Assembly (NCBI GenBank): GCA_002368195.1
Contig: AP018178.1
Location: 5,209,286-5,273,285, forward strand
DNA length: 64,000 nt
Origin: Calothrix sp. NIES-2100
GTDB lineage: Bacteria; Cyanobacteriota; Cyanobacteriia; Cyanobacteriales; Nostocaceae
Direction: 5' to 3'
This document shows, one piece after another, positions 1,879-19,778 of this stretch. Position 1 is the first letter of the stretch; every line of letters begins with the position of its first letter. The notes below the pieces were generated by a model. The model did not search any database. It was not told the origin of the DNA and saw only the letters and a list, made by a program, of their open reading frames with translations. The position numbers were made by a program, and so were the translations under genes.

Positions 1879-1916
1879 AGTTGCTTTAAAAAATTTCAAA
1901 ACTTTTTATACAACTT

Positions 1917-2459
1917 TTATCTAATATTTACTGCAGTGACGTTACTACGGAATCGTACCATTTCCTCACTTGCATGAAAATGTAATGCTATTTCTGTCTG
2001 TTTCATTTGACGCTGAACAGCCCAAAGTAAACCCCGCCGAGGAATCTGAAGACAACTACCTAAATAAGTAGCTTCATCTTCATCGCTCTGTCGGCGCAAA
2101 GGAAGCCCAGTATTTGGATCGAAGCGGACAATTTTATGTCTTAATAACAGGTGTCCAAACTCATGCATCAGGTTCGACTCACGCCTCGCGGGTGTATGGA
2201 GTGGGTTGTTTACAATCCAGAGTGGGCTTTGATTGATAATTCCTGCTGACCATTGGTCGCTATCGAGCAATATCTTTACTACACAAGGATCTAAGTTGGG
2301 AATCTGTTCCGGTGTCAAAATTTTGGCATTTAGTTGAACTGCCAGTATATCTGCTGGTAATGGGTCAAATGCCCGTAAGTTTAATAAACTACGTTGCTCA
2401 GTGGCAATGCCTTCACACTTTTGCCTAAACTCAGTTGGTAATGTCTCTGTTAGTGCCAT
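1917..2459 (-). CDS. ImmA/IrrE-family zinc metallopeptidase
   Basis: 180-aa ORF with an HEXXH motif (HEFGHLLLRH). It lies immediately downstream of, and co-oriented with, an XRE HTH gene, which is the classic ImmR/ImmA arrangement. Confidence 0.65.
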   Translation of the reverse strand: MALTETLPTEFRQKCEGIATEQRSLLNLRAFDPLPADILAVQLNAKILTPEQIPNLDPCVVKILLDSDQWSAGIINQSPLWIVNNPLHTPARRESNLMHEFGHLLLRHKIVRFDPNTGLPLRRQSDEDEATYLGSCLQIPRRGLLWAVQRQMKQTEIALHFHASEEMVRFRSNVTAVNIR

Positions 2460-2477
2460 ATTCTTATAATCCGGCTA

Positions 2478-2840
2478 TTAATTGTCGCTTTTTTGAGCAT
2501 TATCGCGAGACGCTGCTTTGACTAATTCTGCTAGTGCATTCGCTATTGCCGGATCGAGTTTTTTCGATGCTCGCAATTGAATTTCTATTGTCTCTAATGT
2601 ATTAAAGTCGGAGGGAGCTTCGGATTCTTCTGTTTTCTTAAATAGTTCAGATGGTGGCACTTGTAGCCAATTGCAAAGTAATAAAAAGGTTTCCATATCG
2701 GGCATTTTGCCATTTTCTACCCGTGAGAGTGTAGCAGAACTAATATTACCTATTTCTTTAGCTGTATCTCGCAAACCCTTGCTCCCTCGCTTCGTCTTCA
2801 CCATTGCACCCAATAAAGCTGTGTCTAAGTTGTATCCCAT
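2478..2840 (-). CDS. XRE-family helix-turn-helix transcriptional regulator
   Basis: 120-aa ORF with an HTH_3-like segment (LRDTAKEIGNISSATLSRVENGK). It is paired with the ImmA-like peptidase and is divergent from the downstream three-gene operon. Confidence 0.7.
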   Translation of the reverse strand: MGYNLDTALLGAMVKTKRGSKGLRDTAKEIGNISSATLSRVENGKMPDMETFLLLCNWLQVPPSELFKKTEESEAPSDFNTLETIEIQLRASKKLDPAIANALAELVKAASRDNAQKSDN

Positions 2841-2988
2841 AGGTTTTTTGTTGCTTTTATGAAACGCTTTGCTTTATTGTATCACTCAGCTATAGTTATT
2901 ATGTATTCTTTATGTATATACGATTAACAGTGTTTCATTTAAGATACGAAATTCATCCAAAACTAATTTTATACAAGGGAGGTACTGC

Positions 2989-4140
2989 TTGGATAATAGC
3001 GAAATCATCTTATTTGATTTCTTGGTTGTTGGGTTAGCAGAGTTTTTGCGTTTAGATACTCTAGACCAAATCCCTAAATACCCCTACCCTGATTTTTTAC
3101 AGCGTGCCTCCAACACTCTGGCATTGAAAATGACAAGTATTCCGTATCCGCGTACTTTAGAAGGTCTTTTTAGTCTTTTAGAAAAACCCTTGCAAACATG
3201 GTATCCACTGGCGATACCGAAAGAGTTTGATTCAGAATATGGCTTGATTTACGATAAAGCGCTAAGTGAAGAAGCAAGTCAATATTTCTACGAACAGTTG
3301 GTAAAACGAGGGCAATTGCCTGAGTTTGCTTCTGTGAAAATACAGCAAATTGCGCTGGAAAACTTTCTATTTCAGAGGCTGCTGGAGAGACTGCAAGAAG
3401 CCAATGAAAAGGATGCTGAACGCGCTGTGCAAGAATATGTTTTGCTGCGGCGATTCTTAATTGAGAATCCTTATACTACTTTAGAGAGCCTACGCAAGAC
3501 CTTTTCTAAAACACGTTACATATCTATTAATGATGTGGGCGAACTGTACGAAGACTGTAAAGAAAATGAATCTTATTGGTGTTGCGATCGCTGCGGCCCT
3601 TTGATTAAAAAACATGGGCATTTACGTAGCATTAAGCCAAGCGTCTGCAACGATCATCGGAAAAACTTGTCTCATGTCCGGCGTATTTATTGGAAGCAAG
3701 GTCTGCGTCGTCTCAAGTTTGGTATTCATTGGCGTGTCTGTTTGCCTGGAATCCCAGAGATAAATCTGTTCGAGGCTTTAAAAAAGCTGCATCAACAACA
3801 GCCAGAATATCTTTGTGAAGTTCAACTTTGGCCTGGTATTGACCGTTACGACTTGCAACTACGTTTTGGTGATGGTTCAATGTGGGCTGTAGATGTCAAA
3901 GACTACCGAAATCCCTATGATTTGGCTTTGCAACTGAAGCCGATATTTGGGGAAGGCGATTTGCACTACGACGAAAGTTTTTATGTGATTCCTAACCATC
4001 GTCTGCGTCAACGCCAAGATTACATTGATATCTTGCGTGAAGAAGCAACAGGATTGCCAAAAAGTACCCATCTTTTCAGCGATAGAGCTTTTGAAGAACG
4101 AGTCAGCACTAAGATAATGCACCTGAGTAAAGGGAAATAG
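2989..4140 (+). CDS. PD-(D/E)xK (restriction-endonuclease fold) nuclease-like protein with Cys-rich insert. Candidate REase component of a pPIWI-RE-type module
   Basis: 383-aa ORF. A candidate catalytic motif FGDGSMWAVDVKDY fits the D...(D/E)xK pattern. A Cys/His cluster (CCDRCGP...H...CNDH) suggests a Zn ribbon. There is a 4-bp gap to the next gene, indicating an operon. Confidence 0.4.
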   Translation: MDNSEIILFDFLVVGLAEFLRLDTLDQIPKYPYPDFLQRASNTLALKMTSIPYPRTLEGLFSLLEKPLQTWYPLAIPKEFDSEYGLIYDKALSEEASQYFYEQLVKRGQLPEFASVKIQQIALENFLFQRLLERLQEANEKDAERAVQEYVLLRRFLIENPYTTLESLRKTFSKTRYISINDVGELYEDCKENESYWCCDRCGPLIKKHGHLRSIKPSVCNDHRKNLSHVRRIYWKQGLRRLKFGIHWRVCLPGIPEINLFEALKKLHQQQPEYLCEVQLWPGIDRYDLQLRFGDGSMWAVDVKDYRNPYDLALQLKPIFGEGDLHYDESFYVIPNHRLRQRQDYIDILREEATGLPKSTHLFSDRAFEERVSTKIMHLSKGK

Positions 4141-4144
4141 CATT

Positions 4145-7100
4145 ATGAGTCAAATGACATTATTTGAGCCACCTGTTATTTTTACAGAACGTATCAAAGA
4201 ATTGAAAGATAACTCTGAGCTAAATCGAGAGCAAGCCCAATCATTACTTCAGGTGGAACTTGGCTTTGCCTTGATGGAGTGTTTAGGAATCGATGATGAA
4301 CCAGTAATAGCAGTTTGGGCAATACTCAGTGGTATGCCTTTGCGACATCCAAGGTTACAAAACTTAGATGAAAGTCAGAAGCGTGCAGTTGCTAACGCTC
4401 GGCAAATTATCCCATTTTCTGCACGTTTTGCATGGTTGGGGGCATTACGTTTTTATATCCGCAATATTCCGCAAAACTGGCGTAATTATGATTTTAATAT
4501 CCAAGACTTAGATTCTCAGATTATTCATGCAGCAAAAGGTCTGCGCCATCAAGTCCACCAAAATTTATATGAAAACTGTCTGAGTGCCGATTTGGAGTTT
4601 CGCCAACGCAGGGCTGAACCAGTAAAGGCAGGAGTTCCCTACCAATTCCAGGCAAAGACAGAAAAAGAAACAGTCACAATGCAAGTACAGTTCACACCAG
4701 AACATTTAAGTAGTGCAAGACAACAGCCTTGGTTTCCCACACCACGCGATCGCAATCCTTTTTCAGTGCGAATTTCAGATTTAGAGTCAGATGCAGAGTT
4801 CCTCGATCGCCGCGAACAGTTACTAGCACGCCGATATGGATGGCATGAAACACAAAAAGGACACTGGGTAAGCCGCTTTCGCAAAATCAACTTTCACAAA
4901 ATTCAGGAAGACGGGACGCTGAGCGATCGCAATACAGAACCACTAGATTTGGATGGTTTTGTACATATTGCGGGACAGGTTGCTTCTGGGAAGTCTACCC
5001 TGTCAACTTTGCTTGCTGTTAATGTATTACGAAATCACCCCGACCGCCGCATCACCTTAGTTGTCAGTGATGTACAGTCAGCAATTCGGTTAGCAAATCA
5101 AATTAATTGGTGGTTCTGTGACGATCCAGAAAACGATGAGCCAGTTGCAGTACCGTTATTAGGACGCACTAAACGAGACGCGCACCTGAAAAGCTTCTAT
5201 GCCTCAAAAGACTTTCAGGAACACTGGCAACGCGGACAACCACACTGGGGCGATCGCTTTTTGGGAACGGCTTGTGCTTTGCAAGGACTCCTACAAGCTA
5301 GCGACATCTTCGACCGTTTGCATGGTAAGCCACTCATACCTGGAACTGAGCCATGTCATGCTTTGAAAGAAGCACCAGAAAGCGAAAGCAAGCGTAAAAA
5401 ACAAAACAATAACCCTGGTGTGTCTCACTTGTGTCCGTTTTTTGCTACTTGCCCATCAAAGCAAGTCTATCGTGATATGCCAAATGCCCGTGTTTGGATT
5501 ACAACTCCAGGCGCAATGGCAATGGCTGGTTTACCGCGTCATCTAGAATTGCGTCCCATCAAGATAGGGGAACTCGTTTATCTACATTCCGATATTGTTG
5601 TGTTTGATGAAGTAGACACAGTTATTAAGTGGTTTGATGACGTATATGCTGAGAAAGTTTTATTGACCAATGGTGGTGTTTTTGATGACATTGGGGTACA
5701 AACTGAAGATTACATGAGATTCAACCGTGTTACCCCACCATTGATGCAGCGATGGACAACCGCAGAACGTCATGTACAAAGTGTAGTTACAGCAACTTTA
5801 ACCCTATTGGATAAGCGTTTAGGACACGAGTTTTTACGTAAATGGATAGAACGTGGCTACTTTACACCTAATTCTCTTCTGTATAAATTTTCTCGTCGCC
5901 TAGCTGGACTTGAAGAGTTAGATTCTCCTGATGTCACTGAGCAAGAAATTAAGGCTAATAATCGACGCGTACAGCAGATAATGCGAAATTTTGACGCATT
6001 ACTTGATGATGACCCTTTACTTGGGCAACCTCGTCCCAATTCTAAAGTTCAGAGACTGGCACTTCTGATTCAACAGATTAATAGTATTGGCGAAAGTGCT
6101 ACCGACGATAGTATTTATCGTGCTTGCAAAGCCTGGATAGTTGATTTTTTCCCCAAAACAGGAAAAAGGTTAGCACGACTGCGAGAACAACTGGAAAAAC
6201 GTCAAAACAATTCACAGCAGACAGCTAAGAAAAAACGGCGGAAGTCCTCAAAACAGGAGGAAGAATCAGATCCCGTAGACACCCTCGAAACCCTAGCTTA
6301 TCGTTTACAGTTTGCCCTGACCATCACCCTTTTAGATCGGCACACGCGCATTGTTTTTTATGAATGGCATCATCGACCACCCACTTTAGATGACGAGCCA
6401 CCACATCGTCGGATGCCGACAGCAATGTTAAATATTTTACCGTTACCACCAACAGGAAGGCAGTTTGGTACCTACTATTCCCGCAAAGATGACAATCACA
6501 ACCAATCTGAAAACAGTAGCGATAATGCCTTATCTTTGTTTGCCTATACCAATATTGGTCGTTACTATGTTTTGAACTTTCATCGCTTGCTGACAGACTT
6601 GGATGGTCAACGCGGCCCCAACGTCTTGGCATTATCAGGAACTTCTTATCTACGAGATTCCACTAAGTTTCATGTGGGTAATCCCCAGGGTATTTTAATG
6701 CCAGAGCCGAGTGCAACAGAAGCGATCGCCCAAAGCCGTTTTAAGTTTTTACCTCAATCGAACCGCAAAGATGAACCTATCCGTATTTCTGGGACACCAG
6801 AACGCCAAAAGATGGGAATGTTTAAAGAGATGGCACAAGCATTAGTTGGTAACAACGGTAGTAGCGATTTAGGACAGGAACTTGAGGAATTGAAACAGCT
6901 TGGCCAGAGCAATCCAGATTTTTGGCAGGATAGGGAACGCATACTATTACTCGTTAATTCCTACGATCAGGCGCGATGGGTAGCAGACGAAATCCGTCAA
7001 TGTTGGTGGGGTATGCGGGAGCAAGTTTACCATTTGCAGCGCGATCGCACAGAAACTCTGACCGAGGATGACATCAACTATCTCTCAAGGATGGAAGTTG

Positions 7101-7768
7101 GTGCGCTCAACCGTGCTGACATCGAAACTTTCGCACTGACTGGCGGTAAAATCCTGGCTGCACCGATAAGTGCAATGGGGCGCGGATTCAACATTTTGAA
7201 TGCCAATGGTAAAGCGGCTTTCGGTGCGGTTTACTTTCTCACCCGTCCCTATCCTCATCCCCATGATACTCAAGCGATCGCTCAAGAAATCAACCGTCGT
7301 GCTTTGGATTGGGTAGAAGATGCGAATTTCGTGGCTTGGGAAAAAGACGGAATTTTAGGGCGTGCGGAAGCTGTGCGCCAATTGGCTGCACGTTACTGGC
7401 GATCGGTAGAACATCGTTCTTACTACAAAACACTGTATAAAAATGAAGAATTACGCGCCTTTCCCCGTCAAGACTTAGCTGCGACTACGGCTGGCGTAAT
7501 CGTTCAAGCCGTAGGTCGCCTTTTACGCGGAGGTGTTCCCTTTCACGCTTACTTTGTTGATGCTGCTTGGGGGCCAAACTATGCCAAAGAGCAACAGCTT
7601 GATACACCACGTACCAGTTTACTAGCAGCAATCATCGATTTGCTTTGTGATTATGTTGATGAAGATACGATAAGTAAGGCTTTATACCAATCAATTGCAG
7701 ATGCTTTGGTTAATATCGATGGCTTCAACTGGGAAATAGATGCAAGAGATAGATCAAGAGATAGATAA
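4145..7768 (+). CDS. Superfamily-2 helicase, DinG/Rad3-like, with unknown ~270-aa N-terminal domain
   Basis: 1207-aa ORF. Walker A is GQVASGKST, Walker B/motif II is IVVFDEVDTV, and motif VI is VQAVGRLLRGG (the Q-x-x-G-R-x-x-R pattern of Rad3/DinG-type helicases). It sits in a tight operon between the nuclease-like gene and the 982-aa gene. Confidence 0.7.
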   Translation: MSQMTLFEPPVIFTERIKELKDNSELNREQAQSLLQVELGFALMECLGIDDEPVIAVWAILSGMPLRHPRLQNLDESQKRAVANARQIIPFSARFAWLGALRFYIRNIPQNWRNYDFNIQDLDSQIIHAAKGLRHQVHQNLYENCLSADLEFRQRRAEPVKAGVPYQFQAKTEKETVTMQVQFTPEHLSSARQQPWFPTPRDRNPFSVRISDLESDAEFLDRREQLLARRYGWHETQKGHWVSRFRKINFHKIQEDGTLSDRNTEPLDLDGFVHIAGQVASGKSTLSTLLAVNVLRNHPDRRITLVVSDVQSAIRLANQINWWFCDDPENDEPVAVPLLGRTKRDAHLKSFYASKDFQEHWQRGQPHWGDRFLGTACALQGLLQASDIFDRLHGKPLIPGTEPCHALKEAPESESKRKKQNNNPGVSHLCPFFATCPSKQVYRDMPNARVWITTPGAMAMAGLPRHLELRPIKIGELVYLHSDIVVFDEVDTVIKWFDDVYAEKVLLTNGGVFDDIGVQTEDYMRFNRVTPPLMQRWTTAERHVQSVVTATLTLLDKRLGHEFLRKWIERGYFTPNSLLYKFSRRLAGLEELDSPDVTEQEIKANNRRVQQIMRNFDALLDDDPLLGQPRPNSKVQRLALLIQQINSIGESATDDSIYRACKAWIVDFFPKTGKRLARLREQLEKRQNNSQQTAKKKRRKSSKQEEESDPVDTLETLAYRLQFALTITLLDRHTRIVFYEWHHRPPTLDDEPPHRRMPTAMLNILPLPPTGRQFGTYYSRKDDNHNQSENSSDNALSLFAYTNIGRYYVLNFHRLLTDLDGQRGPNVLALSGTSYLRDSTKFHVGNPQGILMPEPSATEAIAQSRFKFLPQSNRKDEPIRISGTPERQKMGMFKEMAQALVGNNGSSDLGQELEELKQLGQSNPDFWQDRERILLLVNSYDQARWVADEIRQCWWGMREQVYHLQRDRTETLTEDDINYLSRMEVGALNRADIETFALTGGKILAAPISAMGRGFNILNANGKAAFGAVYFLTRPYPHPHDTQAIAQEINRRALDWVEDANFVAWEKDGILGRAEAVRQLAARYWRSVEHRSYYKTLYKNEELRAFPRQDLAATTAGVIVQAVGRLLRGGVPFHAYFVDAAWGPNYAKEQQLDTPRTSLLAAIIDLLCDYVDEDTISKALYQSIADALVNIDGFNWEIDARDRSRDR

Positions 7769-7773
7769 AGAGT

Positions 7774-10722
7774 ATGACGAGCAAAATTACACCAGAAAAT
7801 ATTCTGTTACCTGCACGGATGAGTTTGGTAAAAAATGCCTTTGCCAAGCTAGAGATTGCTGTGTTGCCATTTCCTTTTGTCCAGATAGTAAGAGACTTTT
7901 GCCACGATATCAAACAAACCCTTTATCGTGGTAAAAACAGGGAGGTTACACCACCATATCGACAGTTAAATAATGCTTTGCTTGCTTGTGCATCTACGCT
8001 GACATACGGCTTTGAGTATGTTGGTTCTGACGAGGAAACCAAGCTTCCTTTATATCAAGCATTAGCTGTAGGAACTCCAGAGAACCCATTGAAAACTCCC
8101 ACACCCCAGCAGATACATGAATTAGTGAGAATTTGGGCGCAAGAGTGGACGAAACAGTATGGTACAAAAAATGAAGTGAATAGCGTGTGCGATCGCTTCC
8201 TTGAAAGGATAAATACCATACCACCTGATTGGGATTGGCAACCTATTAAACCGGAAACACTTGTACGCGATATCAATGCAGAGAGAGGATTAGGATTTCA
8301 AGCCATTCCTAGTCTGCTTGCAACCATGTTGCATGGTAAAAAGTGCATCATTAACTCTGGAAAAAGACAACAGGAAATTCAATGGCGCAAAGTACAGGGA
8401 GGTGGTTCGGGTAGAGTAGGACTTTACGTAGTTAGTAAGCCATTTAAGGCGAATTATACAGATAATTATGGTAAGGAAAAAGAAGGTTACTTTGCTTACC
8501 GTCTAGACTTTAATGTTGAAACCCAAGCAGGAAGATTCAATGATAATGGCAATCTAGAACCGTGGATTTTCTTACATTTGAGTTGTCAAAGATATCCCCA
8601 TAAACCACTTTTAGAAGCTAACTATGGACGTGATATCTCTGTTCTCATGGGTATGAATAAGGCACGTTTATCTGATTATGAGGTGGATTCAACTTTAGTG
8701 CGTCTTGTTATTGATAACAATAGCAAAGAAGAAGAAAATTTGTGGAGGTTACAACTACCAGAATTACTTGCTGCATTCAAAGCACGCGCTCTAGAACAGC
8801 CAGATAATATTCTGAATAATCCCGCAGGATTTGGTAATTTAGATAACTCAAATAATTGGGGTGACAGGGACGAATATTATATAGTTCATACTGAAGGCTA
8901 TAAGTATGAGCATGAGCAACATAAACGAGGACATAGTATAAAAACTGGTTTTAGTTTTTTGGAACGGGGCGATATTATTGCACGAGTATTAGAACTACTC
9001 AACGGCGTTTTAATCCCAGATAATCCGATGCAATCTGACATTCCTGCACCATCAGGTATAAAAGCACCACTAGCAATGCGGGATTACGAATTTATTTCTA
9101 GACCTCGCACAAAACGCCAACCTTATCAGCAAATTGCTACTGATGCTATTTACCGAGCATTACAAGGTAAGCCAATGCACATCTTTATAATTTATCGGGA
9201 ACAAGACACTTGTGAAGTAGTTTACCAGCAATTACGCGATGTATTTCTTCTCAATGAAAATGAAGATTTTCCACAAGATATAACAGTTTCAAAAATTTTG
9301 ATTGATGATGCGACACTTTTACAACCACTTAATACAGGTGGATTTTCGCCTAAAGATCGTAATAAATTCGATGATCAAATACGCAAGCAGCATCAAGTGA
9401 AACGAGACTTATGGCGTACTTTTCTCCAAAAAAATGCTATTCCTCTGATAGATTTTGAGACTAATCCCCACTGTTTAGCGATTATTGAAATTGGCAGAAT
9501 TAAGAAAAAGGGAATTCTCCCCCAACAAAACATTAAAGGAGCTATTCGTGAAGCTTGTGTTAGAGAGGGAATTAGCTCCCAAATGATACAGTCGATACCG
9601 ACAGGTAAACCAAAATCAATTAACTCAGAAGATGATGAAGACAAATCACCAGCCTACAGCAAAGCAACAAAAGGACGGGTGATGAATGCCCTACTGGATG
9701 GAACATTACGTCAAACTGGAGCATTATATGGACTACCTTCTCAACTCTATGAGCAAGCCAAAATACCAAAAGAAATTGCCAAAGAGTTAGATGTAATTGC
9801 TTTTTGTCGTCGCAAAACTAACCAATATCAAGGTGATATTCACTATGTGCTTGCAGTTCGTTTGCGTGCAACAGGTGCGGTATATGTAATGTTTCCTGAT
9901 GGTGATGATTGGATTCCTTACTCACAGGCAGGAATTGCTGTCGGAAAAATTTTTGCTAACGCACGACGCGATCGCCATGAAAATACAAAACGCATTCAAA
10001 GTAAAATCAAGTTGAGCGGTACAGAATTAGTACAGTTTGTTGCACGCGTAGTGACCAAACATTTAGACAGACCAACTATTGTTTTAATTGAAGCCGAAGG
10101 GTGGCGTAACGAACGTGGCGAAGATAATGATGGCTCAGTCTGGTTTCAGTTGAAAAATGAGTACCTGCTGGCAAAACGCAACGTTTTAGACTTTCGCCAT
10201 GTTCCTGGTCACAGTTGCGAGTACAGCCGTGAGAGTAACCAACTAGAGAACTTGCTAGCAGTAATTCGGATTCGCACTGATAAAGAAACACCACAGTACA
10301 TCACCAATCGAGAAACTTGGAACGAAGATTATCCAGCGCGAGATTTCCAACATCTAAGCGGTTTTTACGATAAGTCAGCACCAGAACTACTACATTACTT
10401 CTCTGTGGGAAAACTGCCAAAAACACAGAAGGCGCAAGATGAAAAGCCAATACCTGAACTTTATAAACTCGGTTATCAAGAGGATAAATTCGGTGCTAAC
10501 TTTCCATTCAAACATCAACAGCTAGTGGAAATTGTACCGTTCTTTGTACGCCCAGATTTTCAACCAGAAGAAGCTTTAAAGGCACTATGTCGCGTTCCTC
10601 ACTATTTAAGATGTTCACCTGCTTGGTCTATGGGAAATATCGTTTTGCCATACCCAATGCACTTAGGTCAGGAAGTCATAGAGGATCACCTATGCATACT
10701 TGGTGTAAATTTACAACTTTAA
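7774..10722 (+). CDS. Large uncharacterised protein. Candidate pPIWI-RE (PIWI-RE family) protein of an REase-DinG-pPIWI_RE module
   Basis: 982-aa ORF starting 5 bp after the helicase stop. I see no recognisable enzymatic motif. Size, operon position and the partner genes (REase-fold nuclease plus DinG-like helicase) match the three-gene pPIWI-RE architecture. The assignment rests on context only. Confidence 0.35.
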   Translation: MTSKITPENILLPARMSLVKNAFAKLEIAVLPFPFVQIVRDFCHDIKQTLYRGKNREVTPPYRQLNNALLACASTLTYGFEYVGSDEETKLPLYQALAVGTPENPLKTPTPQQIHELVRIWAQEWTKQYGTKNEVNSVCDRFLERINTIPPDWDWQPIKPETLVRDINAERGLGFQAIPSLLATMLHGKKCIINSGKRQQEIQWRKVQGGGSGRVGLYVVSKPFKANYTDNYGKEKEGYFAYRLDFNVETQAGRFNDNGNLEPWIFLHLSCQRYPHKPLLEANYGRDISVLMGMNKARLSDYEVDSTLVRLVIDNNSKEEENLWRLQLPELLAAFKARALEQPDNILNNPAGFGNLDNSNNWGDRDEYYIVHTEGYKYEHEQHKRGHSIKTGFSFLERGDIIARVLELLNGVLIPDNPMQSDIPAPSGIKAPLAMRDYEFISRPRTKRQPYQQIATDAIYRALQGKPMHIFIIYREQDTCEVVYQQLRDVFLLNENEDFPQDITVSKILIDDATLLQPLNTGGFSPKDRNKFDDQIRKQHQVKRDLWRTFLQKNAIPLIDFETNPHCLAIIEIGRIKKKGILPQQNIKGAIREACVREGISSQMIQSIPTGKPKSINSEDDEDKSPAYSKATKGRVMNALLDGTLRQTGALYGLPSQLYEQAKIPKEIAKELDVIAFCRRKTNQYQGDIHYVLAVRLRATGAVYVMFPDGDDWIPYSQAGIAVGKIFANARRDRHENTKRIQSKIKLSGTELVQFVARVVTKHLDRPTIVLIEAEGWRNERGEDNDGSVWFQLKNEYLLAKRNVLDFRHVPGHSCEYSRESNQLENLLAVIRIRTDKETPQYITNRETWNEDYPARDFQHLSGFYDKSAPELLHYFSVGKLPKTQKAQDEKPIPELYKLGYQEDKFGANFPFKHQQLVEIVPFFVRPDFQPEEALKALCRVPHYLRCSPAWSMGNIVLPYPMHLGQEVIEDHLCILGVNLQL

Positions 10723-10760: not shown

Positions 10761-12212
10761 CAGTAAACCAAAAAGTTTTTCCCCAAAGAGCGATCGCTAA
10801 TCACTCTTACGTATAACAAGGTAGTGTAAATTACTAAATGCATAATTAATGCTTATACTGCTCTTTTGGGGTTCAAAAAATGAAATGATGAAAGTAGTGT
10901 GTAGCATATTGGCTCTTAAAATTGACTGTTTCATCAGAAGAACTGGTTTTAACAGACTCAGAAACCCTTGAAGAGGTTATTGAGTGTTTAGTAGAAAATT
11001 TTTCCATTGAAACTCAGGGGGGATGTGACCAACAAACTTTATTTGAGATTCTTATAAAAGCAGCCAGCAGTGGAGATAGTATTGAGAATACAGCCAAATT
11101 ATTAAAAAATGTTCCTACAGCTAATGATATTAGATATCATCTTAATAAAATCAACAATTTTGAGGAGTTAGAGACACGAATTAATCAAGCATTGAAAAGT
11201 CGAATTCCTTTAGGTTTAAAAAAAGGATGTTTAAAAATAGCGATTGATTTAAATTTAATTTGTTATTATGGTAAGCCAACATTCTTAGAATTACCATACA
11301 TATATAAAAGTGAAGCTAAATCTGGTACTCATTCATTTTTGACGGCTGCAACTTTATATGTGATTAACAAAAACAAGCGTGTAACTCTAGCCGTCAGAGG
11401 TGTTCGCCGACTAGATACTAGTGTAGCGATAATTACTTATTTATTGGCGGAACTTGAATCCCTTAAAATAAATGTAAAAAAACTCTATTTAGATAGGGGA
11501 TTTTTTAATACTCCTGTAATAAGATGGTTGCAAGCATTAGATATTCCATTTATGATGCCTGCTATCAAGACAGGAAAAAAGGGAGGAATTAAACAGTTTT
11601 TGAAGGGAAGAAAAAGCTATAAAACTACCCATACTATTACAAGAGACAAAGATGACTCAGTCACCTTTGACTTATGGATTGTCTGTAAATATAGAAAAGG
11701 AAAGCGTAAAAAATATGGGGTGCAATACCTTGCTTATGTTACTTATAAAATCCAAACTAATTTAGATTATATATATCAGGATTATCGAAAAAGATTTGGC
11801 ATCGAAAGTAGTTATCGGCTGCAAAATCTTTGTCGAATTAGAACAAATAATAAAAATCCCGCATTAAGATTACTATTCGTTGGTATATCTTTTCTTTTAG
11901 TTAATATTTGGGTTAACCTCCTCTGGCTTAGAATAAGTCGGAAAAGGCTCATGTTGCCGATTAATTTACCGGACACTTTTCGTACTTAAACAGATGTTAG
12001 CCTTTTTATCTCAAGCCCTACAGCGTAAATATCAAGTAGTAGAAAGCATTTATATTCCACGACTGTTAGCACCAACAAATTATCAATCAGCTAATCATAA
12101 GTAATCATTATCCATACTATGTCTGCTGGTTAAAGGAGCGAGTATTAAAAAGTATCGTAGGCTACAAAATATTTAGCGATCGCTCTTTGGGGAAAAACTT
12201 TTTGGTTTACTG
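10761..12212 (+). mobile_element. Insertion sequence (IS4 superfamily-like) with perfect 39-bp terminal inverted repeats
   Basis: Left IR at 10761-10799 is CAGTAAACCAAAAAGTTTTTCCCCAAAGAGCGATCGCTA. Right IR at 12174-12212 is its exact reverse complement. The element encloses a single transposase ORF. No obvious target-site duplication flanks the IRs. Confidence 0.8.
10922..11989 (+). CDS. DDE transposase (IS4/IS701-like)
   Basis: 355-aa ORF with a probable TTG start. The C-terminal motif YRKRFGIESSYRLQN resembles the IS4-family Y-(2)-R-(3)-E-(6)-K signature. The gene is AT-rich and lies between the terminal IRs. Confidence 0.7.
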   Translation: MTVSSEELVLTDSETLEEVIECLVENFSIETQGGCDQQTLFEILIKAASSGDSIENTAKLLKNVPTANDIRYHLNKINNFEELETRINQALKSRIPLGLKKGCLKIAIDLNLICYYGKPTFLELPYIYKSEAKSGTHSFLTAATLYVINKNKRVTLAVRGVRRLDTSVAIITYLLAELESLKINVKKLYLDRGFFNTPVIRWLQALDIPFMMPAIKTGKKGGIKQFLKGRKSYKTTHTITRDKDDSVTFDLWIVCKYRKGKRKKYGVQYLAYVTYKIQTNLDYIYQDYRKRFGIESSYRLQNLCRIRTNNKNPALRLLFVGISFLLVNIWVNLLWLRISRKRLMLPINLPDTFRT

Positions 12213-12658: not shown

Positions 12659-13822
12659 TTATCCTGAAATATCCTTTCTTAAAACTCGATACCAATTGTT
12701 AATTTCCCGACTAACTAAAATATCCTGGTTAATAGGTTCTAGATGGGAAAGGGAATTTCGCATTTCTTTAAGTTGTTTAACAAGTCGTCGCAGATCAAGA
12801 GGCACAATTTGATCAGTCTGATTCAGTTGATATTCAATGTGACCAATTTCTAAATCTCTTAAATCTTTAATAACTTCACCAAAGCTGGTTTTAAAAGGTA
12901 CTGTTAAAACTTTAGAAAACCGTTGAATAATTTCTTGTCTTCTCTCTTCAATAAAGGGGAAAATTTCTCCGACTTCACCTCGCCAAATTCTCGATTTTAT
13001 TTCTCCTTGGGCTAAATTATCAACCGCTAAAACAGCCGAATGAATTTTTTCTTCACCCTCAATAGTATTTTTAAATCCTTGACACCAACTCTCTGCAAAA
13101 GTAATATTCTTTGTGCGATCGCACTGCCAACCATGTTGTTGAGCAATTTCTTGTAGAATCGGTTCTGGGTGAAGAATATGCTCAATTTTTTCAGCGGCTA
13201 AACGTTCGCTAACTTCAAAATCCCACAGCGCTAGATGGGTGATAACTGATATCGCTACCCGCTTTTGCAAATCGGAGAGTCGGTTTCCGGGAAAGAGGTT
13301 AGCCGTGAACAATAGCATATCCAGAAAGCTGACAACTCCCTGCCAAGTTTGATGTGATAGACAGACATCCTCGACTGGGGGCGCGATCGCTATTTCTCCG
13401 ACTAATGAGACGATAAATAGCGTACGATGCAATTGGGGGATACCGCGACAAGGTTGTTCGTAGTCGGAAAGGAATTTTTGCCAAGCAGGCCAAACATCGA
13501 CAGTCAAATTATCTAACCAGATAATCTTACCAGCAAATTTTTGATTTTGTGCTAATGTCCGTGCATTCCGTACTTCGTTGGGGCTAATTTCGCCGACAAA
13601 CAAATCAAAGAGGAAATGCACCGGATCGAGATAAGTTTCGTCGCTAACAGAAATTTTATGCCAGTCCCAATCGTCCCCAAGTTCAGAGCGAATCGCGTTT
13701 GCTAGACCACTGGGTAAATGTTCTGGTAAACAAAGAATAACATTTTTTCCATCTCTGAAGTCTTCAACAACGCGATCAATAAATTGGCTAGGGCCAGGAA
13801 GTTGCCAGCAAAAACAAGTCAT
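12659..13822 (-). CDS. Hypothetical protein, operon partner of the 1780-aa P-loop giant protein
   Basis: 387-aa ORF that begins 7 bp after the stop of the upstream giant gene on the minus strand. No recognisable motifs were found. Confidence 0.5.
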   Translation of the reverse strand: MTCFCWQLPGPSQFIDRVVEDFRDGKNVILCLPEHLPSGLANAIRSELGDDWDWHKISVSDETYLDPVHFLFDLFVGEISPNEVRNARTLAQNQKFAGKIIWLDNLTVDVWPAWQKFLSDYEQPCRGIPQLHRTLFIVSLVGEIAIAPPVEDVCLSHQTWQGVVSFLDMLLFTANLFPGNRLSDLQKRVAISVITHLALWDFEVSERLAAEKIEHILHPEPILQEIAQQHGWQCDRTKNITFAESWCQGFKNTIEGEEKIHSAVLAVDNLAQGEIKSRIWRGEVGEIFPFIEERRQEIIQRFSKVLTVPFKTSFGEVIKDLRDLEIGHIEYQLNQTDQIVPLDLRRLVKQLKEMRNSLSHLEPINQDILVSREINNWYRVLRKDISG

Positions 13823-13829
13823 ATTATGA

Positions 13830-16800
13830 TTATGCCCCCAAAGATGTGACGATCCGCCCTACCAGTGGATCGATACTCCAATTACTATTACCCACTGGAT
13901 ATGCAAGTCGTAACAATTCTGCCCATTTAAAAGTTTGATGGACAATTTCCGCTGATATGTCCTCAACAATTTCGATTAAATCTGCAATTGCAGCTTCTTT
14001 GAGGGTAGCTAAAGCGTGTAATATTTGTTTTTGTTGAGGATGAGTATTATCCAATCCCATGAGTATTGCTAATTCATTCAGGTATTCCGAATTAGTTAAA
14101 GAATCTGCTAATTTTTGTAAATGCGGTTCCCAGTGTTGGTCTGATTTAGCTTGTTGGTAAAAACGCTGAAGTAGCACTGGCCAATTTCCGGTAATTTCGG
14201 TAATCTTTTCGCGGCTTTCTTTATTCGCGGCGGTAAAATTGTCATCTTCTAACCATTGTCGGAGTGCTGCATCATGCCAAGGTTTGAGACTAAAAATACT
14301 CACTCCTTGAGACACTAAGGAATCAAGACAATTAAGATTAATTAATTCCCATACTTTTGGGGGATTGGCAACAAAAACAACTCTAGCAAAGGACTTTTTA
14401 GATTTTAGTCTCTGAACTTTTTCTAGTGCTATCTTGACCCATTCTTGACTCCAATCACAAGTAGATGACACAAACATAATAGTTGTGCCATCAATCCCCA
14501 TTTCTCGCTTATCTAAGTTGGCTAAATGTTTAGTAAAATCAGATTCTCCAGCGACATTTTCTATGGGAATCCAGAATTCTTTACCAACTGCGGAAATTAA
14601 GAAATCCTGTAATTCATTTAAACCTGCGGCGGGACAACCAAAAATAATTGAGACTCCATTTTCGCGTCTCCGCAATGCTGATTCTTGTTGTACTGTCAAA
14701 GGACTGCGCCGAGATAAATCGTGTCGCAAAGCTGAGCGAAAAATTTCCGCATCGTAACCTAAAGCAGGTTCGCGACTTCTGAGAAGTTGTTCTTCAATTT
14801 CGGCTTCTGTACCTAACAGCAAAACTACGTTGGGACTTCTCAGCGCAAAGCCGCCTTCATTAGTTTCTCTTAAAACTCCTAAACCCACCATTTCTTCTAG
14901 TAAGGCGCGAAATTCATCGGTGGATTTACCTTGAAATCCTTCTGACCACCAAGACAAAACAGCATCCTGAATCCAGGATACAGAAAATCCATCCACCATG
15001 CCTTTTGGACTGGTGAGTGATTCATAAGCAATGGAATATGCGATCACTTCATAGCGTTGGTCTAGTTGTAGTGTCCATAGTAAGCGATCGCGGATCGCTT
15101 TACGCAGATTATTGCTTTGATAAGTTTCGTCAACTTGCTTATCTGCAATCTCATAGGGCGGTGTATTATTGCGATCGTACTTCTTTAAATGATTATTATT
15201 AACATCTCTGAGCAACTCATGACAGTAGAGTTGAATTAAACTCGGATAGTAATTAGTTTGAGACAGAATTCGCGTTACCAAATCGTCTGATAATTCATAG
15301 CCAATATTTGCTAAAGGGCGTTTGATTAACTCTCTAGCTTCGCGCCATTCCTTATTTTCTAACAATGGGCCAATGCAAAGTGGCTCTCCATAATGAGCTA
15401 GCGGATGGTTTTCTACCCTAGTAGTACGTTGAACATTGTGTAACCCGGCGAATACTACTTTGAAACGGCGATCTGTTTTATCCATCAAACCTTTGAAACG
15501 GCTAGTTTGACTAAATTTATTTTGTCCATCAGATTCTAGGAATTTGTCGGCTTCATCAAGTAATAAAAGAATCCGCCGACTTTTATCCTGTTCTAACCAA
15601 TTTTGCAGATGTCGTAGCAAAGTTTCCGCACCTATATTGGTGGGACTCATCCGGGGTACAACTTCTAATTTTTTAAACTCATCTGCTAATAAGCTCCAAA
15701 TATCTTCAATTGGTCTGTGGATACCAATACCATCAGCTTTTAAATCGAGAAACAGAGCTATTCTTCTTTCCTGGGGTGCGTGAAATTCCCGTTCTACAGA
15801 ACGCAATAAAGCAGTTTTTCCTAACTGTCTACCTCCATAAATAAAGCAAGAACCCATAGAATTAATTACGGAGTCTCGCTCTTGTTTCCGTCCGTAAAAA
15901 ATTTCTGGAGGAACTAAGCCAGCAGTGGTAGCATGAGTTTCTAAAAAAGTAAAAGGTAGAGCGCACTTAAATAATGTCCGCAGTCGTGGTTCTTCTGCAC
16001 CGCAAATATACAGCATTAATATGTCATCAATCAGCACAAATGTTCGACGGCGTTCTCGACAAAGCCTTGCTAAATCTCTACGTCTGAGTTCTGTCAACCG
16101 TCCAAAAAAGAAGACAAAAGCTGGGGAACCATGAGAAGTTTCGCCAACTGCATTGAGAATGTCTTCTGCTGTGGGTCTATCCCAGACACAAAGAATACGA
16201 TATTGTCCGTGAGCCGCCGATCCATAAGTAGCAACAGGACACAATTCTTTATTACGGATGATTTCTGTTGTGATTTGCAGCCAAGTTCGACCGCCGACAC
16301 GTTCAATTGTAATTCGCGATGGATTAAATCCTAAGTTAACCAGAATAATCCCCGCATCAGACTCTAAAATTTGTTGGAATTTACCGGCTTTTTTCGCAGA
16401 AAACCAAGCATTGAGCATTTTCGCTGCTCTTTCAGTTGCAGAACCAGAAAGTCTGCGGAAATTGATTCCACAAAAATCTTCTCGTCTTTGGACTTTGGAA
16501 ATCAGAAGATTCGGGCTATTTTCTTCCATGAATTTGTCAATTTCAGTCACTTTGAGGGGGAAGAAATCGCTAAAATCATTTGCAGCTATTTCTACAGGAG
16601 GAATTTCATCGCCTCTATCTATCATGTCGATGTATTCATTAGCTGTCAGCACATTTCCCTGGTTTAATAGTTCTTGGATGCGGACATAACTTGGTTGTTC
16701 GGAAGTGAGGGAAAGTGCATTTAATCTTTGTCTTACCTGCTCAATTGCTGCTGCTTTCTTTTGCGCGATCGCGGCTTTAATCTCTTCTAACTTTTCATGT

Positions 16801-19172
16801 TTGATATCAAACCGCAAAACTGTTTCAACTTCTTTCTCAATATTGGCAATTTTGGCGGCATAATCAAATCTATCTGCTTCTTTGAGAATTCCTAAAGCTA
16901 CTGCTTGTTCAATTTGATTTCTGGTGTCTTTAATATCTCTGACTAAACTATCTCGACATTCCTTTAGAGAATCTTCGCGCATTCGTAACAGTTCTTCCAC
17001 ATCTATATCAGCTTCTGGATAAACGCGCAAATACTCAATTATTCGCTCTGTGGCTTCGTGATTTTTACTTTCACTTTGAACTAAAAAATTTTGCAGCCAG
17101 TTAAAATTATTCTGGGCTACTAAATTGAGAATACCTTGAACAAGGGAATTTTCGCCAATTTCCGGTTCCCAATTCACATTTAAAGTGACTGCGGGGATTC
17201 TGAGTAAATCCCCATAAATCAGATATTTCGGTTCTGGTTCCACCGTTGCTAAGGGAGTATCGGGAGCGAACAAATCACAAATGTCTCTTACCGCAGCTCG
17301 ACAAATGGAAATTCCAGTTCTCATGAATACTGATGAATTTCTGGACTCAAAAATATTTAATTCTTGCAACACAGCATTGTGCAAACCGGAAAGTTCTTGT
17401 TTGATTTGCTCCGCTAGCTTGGCTTGTCTTTCCGTAGAATTGCTGTTTTGCTCTAAACGTAATTCTTGTAACTCAATCCAACGCCGACAAAAGTCCAGCA
17501 CTTGATGCACATATCGACAAAGTTTAGGAATATCATCTTTGTCGATGGCTCTTTTTTTATTCGCATCAAGGCTTTCTTTAGTTAAATCAATTTTTCTTTT
17601 AATTTCATCTTTTATATATAGTCGTTGAATTTTTTGCTGAATTTCTTGGACATCATTTAAAGTTATATTTCTGATAACAGCAGTATCTTTTTCTCTAATC
17701 TGAGACAACAATTCATAAATAAACCCATCTGACTCTAGCCACTTCTTCCAAATTTTTCGAGCTTGGGTTTTCAGTGGGATTGCAGAAGCTTGTGAGTACC
17801 AAAAATCAACTTCTTGATTCAGCGCTGCAATTTCTTTGTTCCACTCTTCTTGACTTTTAACTTTTTTAATAGCTTTTGTATTTAACGCTATCCGTTGCGC
17901 TCCGTATCTCCCAATAATTTGGCAATATTCATAAAGTTGGTTTAATCCTTCTCCCAATCGCAAAAACAGCAGAATTTGTGAAGCATCAGTATTGGGAGCT
18001 AGCAAGGCTGGGCGAAGCGCTGAAGCTGCTAACAATAAACTGATTTCCTGATTCCACTCACTGTTTCCATTAAAGGGGCGATCGCTAAAATTAGCAAAAT
18101 CATCCCTCAGGATATTTGCTATTTCCCCTATTCCTACTTCATAACGTATCTGACTACCCAAAACTACTGCGCGAATTACCCAAGCAGGAAGTTGGAATTG
18201 AATGTGCGGAAATTCGATTTCTAGACAACGTGCTAAATTAAAAGCTAGACTAACCTTGTTTTCATAAATTAATTGCCAAATTAAATCTTGCAGTGCATTC
18301 TGACTTGATTCTAAGTTACTATTTAATATAGATGTTGCTATTTCTTGGACATATGTCTGGGGCTGAATTGGAGTTGGTATGGGGATATGATTAACTACTA
18401 TTTCTTGAGCAGTATCCCTAGGAATTTCAGCAACTTTGGTTACTTCTACTATCTCTAATTCTGCAACAATTGTATCAACATTAGTTGCAGGTGCGATTAA
18501 TTCAGATTCTAAAATTACTGCTGTGATCGCCTCTGATTTTTCTGCTGAGGAAAATATGAGTTTACCTGTCAAAGCAGCCATAGCAATAGGCATTCCCAAC
18601 GACTGCGCTACGCCTGTTTGCAAGTCGGCTAGTTGTTGGAAATCTGGAGATTCTCGAACAGAAATTAGTGTTAGCAGTTGAACTAATGGATGTTCCCCAG
18701 ATACTAATGCTTTGGCTTCTGGATGTAAGCTATTTTCCGGTGAATTCAAAATTAAATTCTCTAAGTCACGAGCTTGGGCTATACATTGTTGTAATGGCGG
18801 AAAATCGGAGCGATCGCTGTAGGCAATTCGGGAAATATCTTTTAAAATATCTAAAGCTTGTCGGTTAGTTTTACTAACTGTTTGTTCTGCTTCCGCAACA
18901 GATTTTAAAATTGTTTCTAGTTCTTTGAGAGAAATAATATTATTAATATCGGCAGTACTAATATCTAAAGATTGTGCTAATTCCACAACTTGACTACGGA
19001 GTTCTGCAAACCGTCGTTGTTCACTGATAATTTGCTCAACCAGCGCAGGTGATGGCGCAATCAAATTGCTTTCTAACTGAAGTTTAGCTTCAGACAGTTG
19101 TTCGCCAAGTTGTAAAAAACTCTTGCCTAAAGATTGTAAATTAGTTTGTAATTTGCCTAAATTTTGTTCCAT
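13830..19172 (-). CDS. Giant (1780 aa) coiled-coil protein with central P-loop NTPase (AAA-like) domain. Function unknown, candidate defense/conflict-system protein
   Basis: The N-terminal ~900 aa are rich in heptad/coiled-coil-like sequence. Walker A is FIYGGRQLGKTALL and Walker B is RILLLLDEADKF. A long C-terminal region follows. HIP1 sites are present, so the composition is native-like. Confidence 0.6.
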   Translation of the reverse strand: MEQNLGKLQTNLQSLGKSFLQLGEQLSEAKLQLESNLIAPSPALVEQIISEQRRFAELRSQVVELAQSLDISTADINNIISLKELETILKSVAEAEQTVSKTNRQALDILKDISRIAYSDRSDFPPLQQCIAQARDLENLILNSPENSLHPEAKALVSGEHPLVQLLTLISVRESPDFQQLADLQTGVAQSLGMPIAMAALTGKLIFSSAEKSEAITAVILESELIAPATNVDTIVAELEIVEVTKVAEIPRDTAQEIVVNHIPIPTPIQPQTYVQEIATSILNSNLESSQNALQDLIWQLIYENKVSLAFNLARCLEIEFPHIQFQLPAWVIRAVVLGSQIRYEVGIGEIANILRDDFANFSDRPFNGNSEWNQEISLLLAASALRPALLAPNTDASQILLFLRLGEGLNQLYEYCQIIGRYGAQRIALNTKAIKKVKSQEEWNKEIAALNQEVDFWYSQASAIPLKTQARKIWKKWLESDGFIYELLSQIREKDTAVIRNITLNDVQEIQQKIQRLYIKDEIKRKIDLTKESLDANKKRAIDKDDIPKLCRYVHQVLDFCRRWIELQELRLEQNSNSTERQAKLAEQIKQELSGLHNAVLQELNIFESRNSSVFMRTGISICRAAVRDICDLFAPDTPLATVEPEPKYLIYGDLLRIPAVTLNVNWEPEIGENSLVQGILNLVAQNNFNWLQNFLVQSESKNHEATERIIEYLRVYPEADIDVEELLRMREDSLKECRDSLVRDIKDTRNQIEQAVALGILKEADRFDYAAKIANIEKEVETVLRFDIKHEKLEEIKAAIAQKKAAAIEQVRQRLNALSLTSEQPSYVRIQELLNQGNVLTANEYIDMIDRGDEIPPVEIAANDFSDFFPLKVTEIDKFMEENSPNLLISKVQRREDFCGINFRRLSGSATERAAKMLNAWFSAKKAGKFQQILESDAGIILVNLGFNPSRITIERVGGRTWLQITTEIIRNKELCPVATYGSAAHGQYRILCVWDRPTAEDILNAVGETSHGSPAFVFFFGRLTELRRRDLARLCRERRRTFVLIDDILMLYICGAEEPRLRTLFKCALPFTFLETHATTAGLVPPEIFYGRKQERDSVINSMGSCFIYGGRQLGKTALLRSVEREFHAPQERRIALFLDLKADGIGIHRPIEDIWSLLADEFKKLEVVPRMSPTNIGAETLLRHLQNWLEQDKSRRILLLLDEADKFLESDGQNKFSQTSRFKGLMDKTDRRFKVVFAGLHNVQRTTRVENHPLAHYGEPLCIGPLLENKEWREARELIKRPLANIGYELSDDLVTRILSQTNYYPSLIQLYCHELLRDVNNNHLKKYDRNNTPPYEIADKQVDETYQSNNLRKAIRDRLLWTLQLDQRYEVIAYSIAYESLTSPKGMVDGFSVSWIQDAVLSWWSEGFQGKSTDEFRALLEEMVGLGVLRETNEGGFALRSPNVVLLLGTEAEIEEQLLRSREPALGYDAEIFRSALRHDLSRRSPLTVQQESALRRRENGVSIIFGCPAAGLNELQDFLISAVGKEFWIPIENVAGESDFTKHLANLDKREMGIDGTTIMFVSSTCDWSQEWVKIALEKVQRLKSKKSFARVVFVANPPKVWELINLNCLDSLVSQGVSIFSLKPWHDAALRQWLEDDNFTAANKESREKITEITGNWPVLLQRFYQQAKSDQHWEPHLQKLADSLTNSEYLNELAILMGLDNTHPQQKQILHALATLKEAAIADLIEIVEDISAEIVHQTFKWAELLRLAYPVGNSNWSIDPLVGRIVTSLGA

Positions 19173-19572: not shown

Positions 19573-19778
19573 CCCGAATTCAATAAACGACTACCCGAAT
19601 TCAATAAACGACTACCCAAATTCAATAAACGACTACCCGAATTCAATAAACGACTACCCAAATTCAATAAACGACTACCCAAATTCAATAAACGACTACC
19701 CAAATTCAATAAACAACTACCCGAATTCAATAAACGACTACCCAAATTCAATAAACGACTACCCCAATTCAATAAACC
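19573..19778. repeat. 21-bp tandem repeat (~10 copies) GAATTCAATAAACGACTACCC(A/G)
   Basis: Direct reading of the sequence. The track ORFs on both strands (NSINDYP and LLNLGSR heptapeptide repeats) are artefacts of the 21-nt periodicity. Confidence 0.85.

Follow-up and report, generated by a model that had tools for sequence, protein, structure and literature searches.

A window of 64,000 nucleotides (nt) from the chromosome of Calothrix sp. NIES-2100 (contig AP018178.1, positions 5,209,286 to 5,273,285; GC content 39-45%) carries on its minus strand two genes of the same direction, 7 nt apart: a giant gene encoding 1780 amino acids (aa), at 13830-19172, and a gene encoding 387 aa, at 12659-13822, which we call the partner. 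Our main finding is that the two genes are almost inseparable, in five phyla and often within defense islands, and that the partner joins a predicted HEPN-like nuclease domain to a catalytically dead version of the ATPase fold found in the large protein. We regard the pair as an uncatalogued variant of the immunity built from an ATPase, an inactive STAND (iSTAND) and a nuclease, with a function that we infer; it is, in our judgment, probably a conflict or defense module.

Linkage and spread of the gene pair

The two products are 100% identical to the NCBI records NIES2100_42230/BAY24428.1 (1780 aa) and NIES2100_42220/BAY24427.1 (387 aa), both annotated as hypothetical. Since each gene is kept across many genomes, neither is a chance open reading frame (ORF). 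An earlier reading made from the DNA letters alone (hereafter the sequence-only reading) had described a 1780-aa gene followed 7 bp downstream by a 387-aa ORF, and this layout agrees with the ORF calls and with the junction, which reads TAA of the large gene, spacer TCATAAT and ATG of the partner:

13830..19172, minus strand: large gene, 1780 aa, giant ORC/Cdc6-STAND-type AAA+ ATPase, proposed sensor/switch (ORF; 100% match to P0001)
13823..13829, minus strand: intergenic spacer, 7 nt (from the sequence)
12659..13822, minus strand: partner gene, 387 aa (ORF; exact NCBI record BAY24427.1)

A genome scan with a partner profile, limited to one genome per species, returned 11 loci, in Laspinema, two Planktothrix species, Phormidium, a cyanobacterial metagenome-assembled genome (MAG), two 'Deltaproteobacteria' MAGs, two Acidobacteriota, a Thermomicrobiales MAG and Candidatus Parabeggiatoa. 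In all 11, the partner is immediately preceded on its strand by a large-gene homolog, encoding 1780-1990 aa (the copy of locus L017 is fragmented), and the same holds for L001, L019 and L020, which makes 14 of 14 partner loci. Large-protein homologs at 32% and 27% identity are likewise followed by homologs of the partner (hhalign E-values of 2.5e-58 and 4.5e-22). In the reverse direction, the ATPase region was used to scan metagenomes and matched at least 561 stretches; among the best 80 loci, 75 extend far enough downstream to be assessed, and what lies there is the partner in 70 cases, a PLD-SNF2 helicase gene behind a large gene fused to a sigma factor in three, and neither in two. Co-occurrence of the homologs, proposed as a check in the sequence-only reading, thus holds from both sides. 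The gap between the two genes is -4 to +9 nt in most loci, which suggests that they are translationally coupled, and the divergence of the large protein correlates with that of the partner (r = 0.97). No third gene is conserved among the neighbors in the 11 genome loci and the upstream ORFs in the 80 metagenome loci (all-versus-all BLAST), and a scan of the two-gene operon for promoters and terminators gave results no better than those for shuffled sequence.

The two-gene form is the rule in each of the phyla sampled. A larger arrangement is present at L103 (1-13771), where the genes of the large ATPase and the partner stand between that of a DUF1156/N6 DNA methyltransferase, which comes first, and that of a PLD-SNF2 helicase, all four being co-directional; the array is a DISARM-like or BREX-related elaboration of the pair. 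The relationship might be turned around, by taking the window pair for the remnant of a larger BREX-related or DISARM-like system of restriction-modification (R-M) type, comprising methyltransferase, ATPase, partner and HKD-SNF2 protein, the rest of which was lost, perhaps through the adjacent insertion sequence (IS). Besides L103, the presence of SNF2-like genes near the pair in L094 and L051, and of an ISH3 transposase gene 670 nt downstream of the window partner, would fit such a history. We hold it to be highly improbable, given the prevalence of the two-gene form in all phyla sampled, the scarcity of the putative missing members in partner-type metagenome loci (a PLD-SNF2 gene in 3/70, a methylase gene in 1/70), and the result of a tblastn search that detected no PLD-SNF2 or methylase relic anywhere in the window. 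No sigma, methyltransferase or PLD-SNF2 accessory gene is present in the window either.

The distribution of the pair is patchy and covers five phyla, which is consistent with spread by horizontal transfer. A phage origin was rejected: the partner was not found in the viral contigs of IMG/VR, and the sole viral-family signal among PHROG families is a weak match on the ATPase core (phrog_6841, of unknown function, E = 1e-7, window positions 15194-15595, large-protein residues 1193-1326). Decayed copies were encountered at L022 (609-9492) and L023, where the large gene lies in ORFs of 1299, 431 and 322 aa, the partner is cut to a C-terminal fragment of 163 aa, and IS200-like and Transposase_mut insertions separate the pieces of the large gene from the partner remnant. 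Such IS-disrupted copies fit a gene set that is costly and dispensable. At another locus, L096 (4998-16238), a large-gene homolog that lacks a partner stands ahead of two further ATPase genes, encoding a 1379-aa protein with TPR and AAA_22 domains and a 503-aa AAA_22/nSTAND2-like protein.

Domains of the two proteins

The large protein, for which 107 close homologs were collected, can be divided as follows:

18531..19172, minus strand: N-terminal helical domain, residues 1-214 (alignment to P0018 begins at P0018 residue 549; heptad-like segment at 43-124)
18303..18530, minus strand: variable linker, residues ~215-290, probably disordered (low EKQRLA composition; homolog comparison)
16533..18302, minus strand: conserved helical core, residues ~291-880, candidate sensor or scaffold (phmmer conservation from ~270)
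15918..16532, minus strand: helices and small alpha/beta domain ahead of the ATPase, residues ~881-1085, strands at ~951-1048
15183..15917, minus strand: AAA+ nucleotide-binding domain, residues ~1086-1330
15804-15836, minus strand: Walker A GGRQLGKTALL, residues 1113-1123
15540-15569, minus strand: Walker B LLLLDEADKF, residues 1202-1211
Residues 1092-1095, 1237-1249, 1267-1271 and 1306-1314: other AAA+ motifs, namely FYGR, the sensor strand FKVVFAGLHNVQR ending in R1249, IGPLL and TNYYPSLIQ
14748..15182, minus strand: helical lid and winged-helix domain, residues ~1331-1475
13833..14747, minus strand: C-terminal alpha/beta (Rossmann-like) and helical region, residues ~1476-1780 (structural model, mean confidence ~88)

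The two Walker motifs named in the sequence-only reading are thus located, and the ATPase is internal as it had said, with ~570 residues past Walker B. GGRQLGKT and LLLLDEAD are invariant in 34 aligned homologs with identities down to 22%, and the Walker residues are present in 77-78 of the 80 metagenome homologs, so the ATPase is very probably active. In Pfam, AAA_22 scores above threshold (34.8 bits versus 27) and nSTAND1 falls just under it (23.6 bits versus 27.1), the distant homolog P0104 reaching 38.7 bits with the latter. An AlphaFold2 (AF2) model of residues 881-1780, with a predicted local distance difference test (pLDDT) score of 87.7, consists of helices and an alpha/beta domain (~950-1075), a classical AAA+ core, a lid, a winged helix and a Rossmann-like/helical end. 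Its ATPase matches ORC/Cdc6, BrxC and STAND proteins, the top matches being to ORC/Cdc6, not Apaf-1 or NACHT. The lid and winged helix that the model shows directly C-terminal to the NTPase are a hallmark of STAND proteins, and an ORC/Cdc6-type AAA+ fold followed by a winged helix-turn-helix is expected of the BrxC/DUF499 type. The model thereby places the ATPase within the ORC/Cdc6-STAND/BrxC-like assemblage. The statement of the sequence-only reading that neither protein belongs to a recognizable family therefore holds in that no PADLOC or NCBIfam model covers them, and fails for the ATPase fold, which lies within an assemblage it had excluded.

The C-terminal region (~1476-1780) is, from the model, a candidate for a sensor or for a surface on which the partner docks. 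No repeat-type sensor (TPR, WD40 or LRR) was matched by Pfam on the large protein, the model of this end being alpha/beta and helical; nor is a partner-like domain present in it (hhalign probability <1%), and profiles of this region and of the partner show no similarity.

The N-terminal half had been described as ~900 aa rich in coiled coil, which did not survive: a crude heptad scan flags residues 43-124 and 686-713 only, and comparison of homologs points to a helical domain, a linker and a conserved core, so that these ~880 residues, as judged from their sequence, are more than a coiled coil. When 1.84 billion cluster representatives (clusters at 50% identity) were scanned with phmmer, the core (residues ~270-880) was matched in 1179 of them at E<=1e-3 and in 331 at E<=1e-30, most of these relatives being 1800-2100 aa long. 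Ahead of the core, homologs vary; many distant ones open with a helical domain of ~200 aa like residues 1-214 of the query, sometimes with an extra N-terminal domain, followed by a linker of 60-400 aa that is acidic or Pro-rich. The core itself is rich in aromatic residues and conserved motifs, and has no match in Pfam, PDB or PADLOC. Its only invariant columns are A310, L390, L401, L430, W565 and G761, and residues 1-880 contain no invariant polar residue of the catalytic type. Because the invariant positions are hydrophobic or glycine, the core (~291-880) is a candidate for a non-enzymatic scaffold or sensor.

The partner family comprises 84 homolog clusters, and no Pfam, PADLOC or NCBIfam model describes it. 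Its features in the window, among which the sequence-only reading had mentioned neither domain, are:

13073..13822, minus strand: residues 1-250, catalytically dead AAA+/STAND-like (iSTAND-type) domain with helical lid
12662..13051, minus strand: residues 258-387, predicted HEPN-like RNase domain
12743-12760, minus strand: motif R355-N-S-L-S-H360
12833-12856, minus strand: E325 within DLEIGHIE

The pseudo-AAA+ fold is modeled with confidence (AF2, pLDDT 94.3). The P-loop position reads LPEHLPSG, and a Walker A motif is present in none of 65 partners; residues 1-250 thus show the alpha/beta AAA+/STAND fold with eroded Walker A that characterizes iSTANDs. The model retains helices after the core (166-247), and 228-253 residues align to CED-4 and to the nucleotide-binding oligomerization domain (NOD) plus lid of NLR proteins.

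Conservation in the family is strongest in the C-terminal ~130 residues. Among 64 further partners, R355 and H360 are present in all, E325 in 62 and N356 in 59 (D, H or R in the others), and R295 and H261 are conserved as well; across more than 100 partners with identities down to 23%, R355, H360, E325, R295 and H261 are essentially invariant. Partners at 23-30% identity, including those of L019 and L020, still have the R-N-x3-H motif. In the model, R355-N356 end the helix 342-359, H360 is the first residue of the loop, E325 stands at the start of, or just before, helix 326-335, and the last helix (366-382) has a kink. The Rx4-6H motif of HEPN RNases is described in just this place and setting (PMC3710099), and the partner has the polar residue (N, D or H) that follows the R in that motif. 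HEPN_Swt1 is also the most recurrent Pfam match among partners, at sub-threshold scores, on residues 341-368 in 14 of 45 members. Fold searches with the whole partner gave matches dominated by the AAA+ half and did not confirm HEPN, and searches with a profile of the isolated C-terminal domain reached no annotated HEPN family. We consider HEPN the best reading of the C-terminal domain, and a probable one from sequence and model. The remote-homology check by predicted structure advised in the sequence-only reading has thus assigned the ATPase (ORC/Cdc6-STAND) and the partner's first half (pseudo-AAA+), and gave no fold-search match for HEPN.

The same gap in the fold searches is the first argument for a different division of labor, in which the module would still serve defense, with the partner acting as a regulator or sensor, not a nuclease, and the effector residing elsewhere, for instance in the large protein (residues ~950-1075 or the N-terminal region) or in host factors acting in trans. 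The iSTAND proteins of BREX are proposed to be sensors that turn on a separate effector (PMC12839542); the unassigned small alpha/beta domain of the large protein contains an invariant D1049; and a PLD-SNF2 helicase gene lies next to the partner in L103 and L094. Against this stand the near-invariance of R355, H360, E325, R295 and H261, which fits the usual pattern of a catalytic site, not that of a fast-evolving sensor, and the lack of catalytic-type invariant residues in the first 880 positions of the large protein. Moreover, a sister clade (see below) has a nuclease-helicase in place of the partner, which suggests that the two are functional equivalents. We therefore judge the partner unlikely to be a regulator, and prefer to see in it a putative RNase.

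Genomic setting and the sigma-fused sister clade

The window places the pair in a defense island, as the sequence-only reading had recognized, with only an IS between it and the pPIWI-RE operon and with a repeat-dense boundary on its other side:

205-1878: AIPR/AbiU-like gene, matching AbiU better than MzaE
2989-10722: complete three-gene pPIWI-RE operon (PprRE, PprDinG, PprPIWI)
10922-11989: ISH3-family transposase gene, between the pPIWI-RE operon and the pair
19573-19777: tandem repeat, 21-bp unit CCCAAATTCAATAAACGACTA, 9.8 copies, 95% match, ~400 nt upstream of the start of the large gene

The island appears to end at ~19.2-20.5 kb, where, beyond the repeat-rich spacer, the housekeeping genes DUF1517, GT4 and ThiD2-ThiE start. 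Inverted-repeat and HIP1-like elements continue past the 21-bp array to ~20500.

Defense genes recur around the pair in other genomes. The Planktothrix island contains a type I R-M system, YgjP, DarT-Macro and SACS proteins, a SWIM/SNF2 pair and a sigma-fused paralog; NB-ARC-TPR is found at L008, CHAT-TPR at L010, a type I R-M system at L014, an RmrA-like gene at L015, and DzbA, a HEC-01/AriA-like ATPase and a type II restriction endonuclease at L017. Ten further loci were sampled by their longest ORF in the 5.5 kb that follow the partner, and five of these 10 ORFs had strong PADLOC matches (pAgo, type I restriction endonuclease, MkoA-like, ZacC with E = 1e-253, and PDC-S41 with E = 1e-138). 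Nearness to known defense genes, proposed as a check in the sequence-only reading, is in this way seen for half of the sampled neighbors. This is a rough sample and no formal measure of enrichment, which must be set against the defense reading, as must a few loci, such as L019 and L033, that lie among housekeeping genes. In Planktothrix mougeotii (JADEWU010000025.1, ~30-74 kb; L001 and L006), the sigma-fused and partner-type systems are within ~17 kb of each other, in an island that also encodes a SWIM and DUF3670-SNF2 pair, an 852-aa SACS-domain protein, a 1780-aa SACS-DarT fusion with Macro, YgjP and a type I R-M system.

The sister clade, which the sequence-only reading did not mention, accounts for ~60% of the close cyanobacterial homologs. 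Its members (including P0018, P0042 and P0046; loci L003-L007, L028, L031 and L032) are ~2400 aa long and open with a complete RpoD-like sigma-70, upstream of the N-terminal helical domain, with sigma regions 1.2, 2, 3 and 4 each well above Pfam thresholds at residues ~180-480. What follows the sigma part aligns over its full length to the window protein, with 47% identity. They have no partner and are always followed by a PLDc_2-SNF2-Helicase_C protein of ~1095 aa, matching the PADLOC models 'HKD+Snf2', DrmD and HmaA. The sigma part of P0018 matches the PADLOC model of MzaA (E = 8e-52), the sigma factor of the validated mzaABCDE defense system (PMC9523054). No AAA_22 fusion figures in a census of sigma-factor architectures of cyanobacteria from 2024. 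Three candidates for a partner in disguise were rejected: a 380-aa ORF downstream of the sigma-fused gene in L003, which is unrelated, a 396-aa gene upstream of and beside P0104, and a hidden partner-like domain in the PLD-SNF2 protein (hhalign probability <1%). Association with a sigma factor also exists unfused in partner-type systems, since at L090 a separate sigma-70 gene (2-586; regions 2-4, truncated where the contig ends) stops 4 nt short of a large-gene homolog of 2100 aa (590-8043), followed by the partner, a 326-aa gene of unknown function and a PLD-like gene.

These sigma factors raise the question of whether the family serves immunity at all, or is a transcription-linked regulatory machine that works with sigma factors and RNA polymerase (RNAP), for instance in stress or developmental control of filamentous or social bacteria, the partner processing RNA. 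The complete sigma-70 of the sister clade, the sigma gene of L090 and the loci set among housekeeping genes would all suit such a role. Several features speak against it: the patchy spread over five phyla, consistent with horizontal transfer; the variable flanks without a conserved third gene; the frequency of known defense genes as neighbors; and the IS-disrupted copies. The sigma-fused forms themselves are always followed by a PLD-SNF2 gene that matches defense models, and their sigma part matches MzaA of a validated defense system. A purely regulatory role is in our view distinctly improbable, and we retain that of a defense module.

Proposed mechanism and relation to known systems

Because the pieces fit a known grammar, namely an ATPase switch, non-catalytic sensors, an inactive STAND on the effector, and interchangeable nucleases (HEPN or HKD-SNF2), we propose that the 1780-aa protein would be the sensor and switch and the 387-aa partner the output. 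A cue derived from the invader would be sensed by the regions of the large protein outside the ATPase; the AAA+ module would undergo an ATP-dependent conformational change or oligomerize; the pseudo-AAA+ domain of the partner would dock onto, or intercalate into, this assembly, in the manner of BrxB with BrxC or of inactive ORC or clamp-loader subunits; the HEPN domains would thereby be brought together into an active dimeric form; and RNA would be cleaved, arresting the infected cell. What the analysis shows is the gene pair with its domain folds and conserved motifs, its obligate linkage, its place in defense islands and its horizontal spread; sensing, assembly of a complex, RNase activity and defense against phages are inferred. 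We give slightly better than even chances to this mechanism, in which the pair would be an NTP-dependent anti-phage module, probably acting by abortive infection.

A more speculative view extends to the whole family, which would be an immune receptor guarding the transcription apparatus, its N-terminal region working with sigma and RNAP. The sigma-70 of the sister clade could then be a decoy for phage anti-sigma or RNAP-hijacking proteins, like the integrated decoys of plant NLRs, or a tether to RNAP; in the window type, the same sensing would trigger a HEPN RNase carried by a dead-NOD adaptor that co-assembles with the active NOD, as a heteromeric 'resistosome' of one active and one inactive AAA+ protein. 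We consider this quite unlikely. If the pair is a defense system, the family is a widespread and uncatalogued one (at least 561 metagenome stretches; 1179 clusters at 50% identity share the N-terminal core) and an addition to the ORC/Cdc6-STAND branch of prokaryotic immunity, and its sigma-fused sister clade points to a link between immunity and transcription machinery.

The sequence-only reading had proposed the pair as a candidate for an undescribed, self-contained two-gene system, and this proposal is upheld by the near-obligate co-occurrence, the defense islands and the lack of catalogued models. PADLOC v2, NCBIfam and specific Pfam families have no model for either core protein. In the PDB, phmmer with both proteins found nothing meaningful, and profile searches found only sigma factors (for the fused members) or noise. 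No description of the pair appears in the literature searched, which included STAND censuses and the BREX/BR survey, supplementary tables excepted. Membership in SMC/Rad50, Lamassu, Septu, RADAR or BrxC was rejected in the absence of PADLOC matches; an SMC/Rad50-type protein is further contradicted by the one AAA+ domain, which is internal, by the lack of Pfam matches to SMC, Rad50 or AAA_23 and by the limited heptad signal.

The closest framework is that of BREX/BR (BrxC with BrxB; Hma, centered on DUF499), which combines an ORC/Cdc6-type ATPase with iSTAND, HEPN and HKD-SNF2 effectors. According to the survey (PMC12839542), BrxC/DUF499 is an ORC/Cdc6-type ATPase, BrxB and BrxF are inactive STANDs that are associated with effectors or joined to them, fusions of HEPN to DUF499 are frequent, and type-2 BR helicases have an N-terminal HKD nuclease. 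The pair differs from these systems in several respects. The large protein has no match to PADLOC BrxC/HmaC or Pfam DUF499 at E<=0.01, and its ATPase is internal, starting at ~1086 behind ~1080 unrelated residues; no PglZ, PglX or BrxA accompanies the pair, and a methyltransferase gene is missing from the window and from nearly all loci; BrxB-type iSTANDs have no helical lid, whereas the partner does; and the HEPN domain of the partner is fused to an inactive domain, whereas that of BR is fused to an active ATPase.

Resemblance to STAND, Avs and NLR-like proteins (including nSTAND1) lies in the succession of P-loop NOD, lid and winged helix, in the hallmarks of the large protein (FxGR before Walker A, hhhhDEAD, a GPL motif and a TNYYPSL-type motif) and in large non-catalytic flanks, variable N-terminal modules, defense islands and a preference for multicellular bacteria (PMC13581612; PMC7159879). 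Unlike in those systems, the effector of the pair is on a separate protein with its own dead NOD, and no PADLOC Avs model is matched. With the Swt1/Abi2 clade of HEPN proteins (for example Ava_2192, where HEPN is fused to a DUF499 AAA+ ATPase), the partner shares an R-N-x3-H that closes the third helix, an acidic residue in the helix before it, a kinked last helix, fusion to an AAA+-type domain and a defense context (PMC3710099). However, its similarity is sub-threshold in Pfam, the AAA+ domain to which HEPN is joined is inactive and precedes it, and the invariant H261 and R295 are additional to the canonical HEPN description. Likeness to MzaABCDE concerns the sister clade only, through the use of a sigma-70-type protein as a defense component (PMC9523054); homologs of MzaB-D are absent, and the window pair has no Mza matches. 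The ternary vWA-MoxR iSTAND systems of Kaur et al. (2020) are similar in placing an inactive STAND in an NTPase-centered conflict system enriched in cyanobacteria (PMC7159879), but no MoxR or vWA genes accompany the pair, and its active ATPase is itself of the ORC/Cdc6-STAND type.

The building blocks are thus known and the architecture is new: a protein of ~1800 aa with an internal ATPase behind a conserved helical region, and an obligate iSTAND-HEPN partner. The division of labor is unusual in that the predicted nuclease is attached to a second, catalytically dead version of the ATPase fold, and the pair may offer a simple two-protein model for how inactive STANDs, such as BrxB and BrxF in BREX, couple an active ATPase to an effector.

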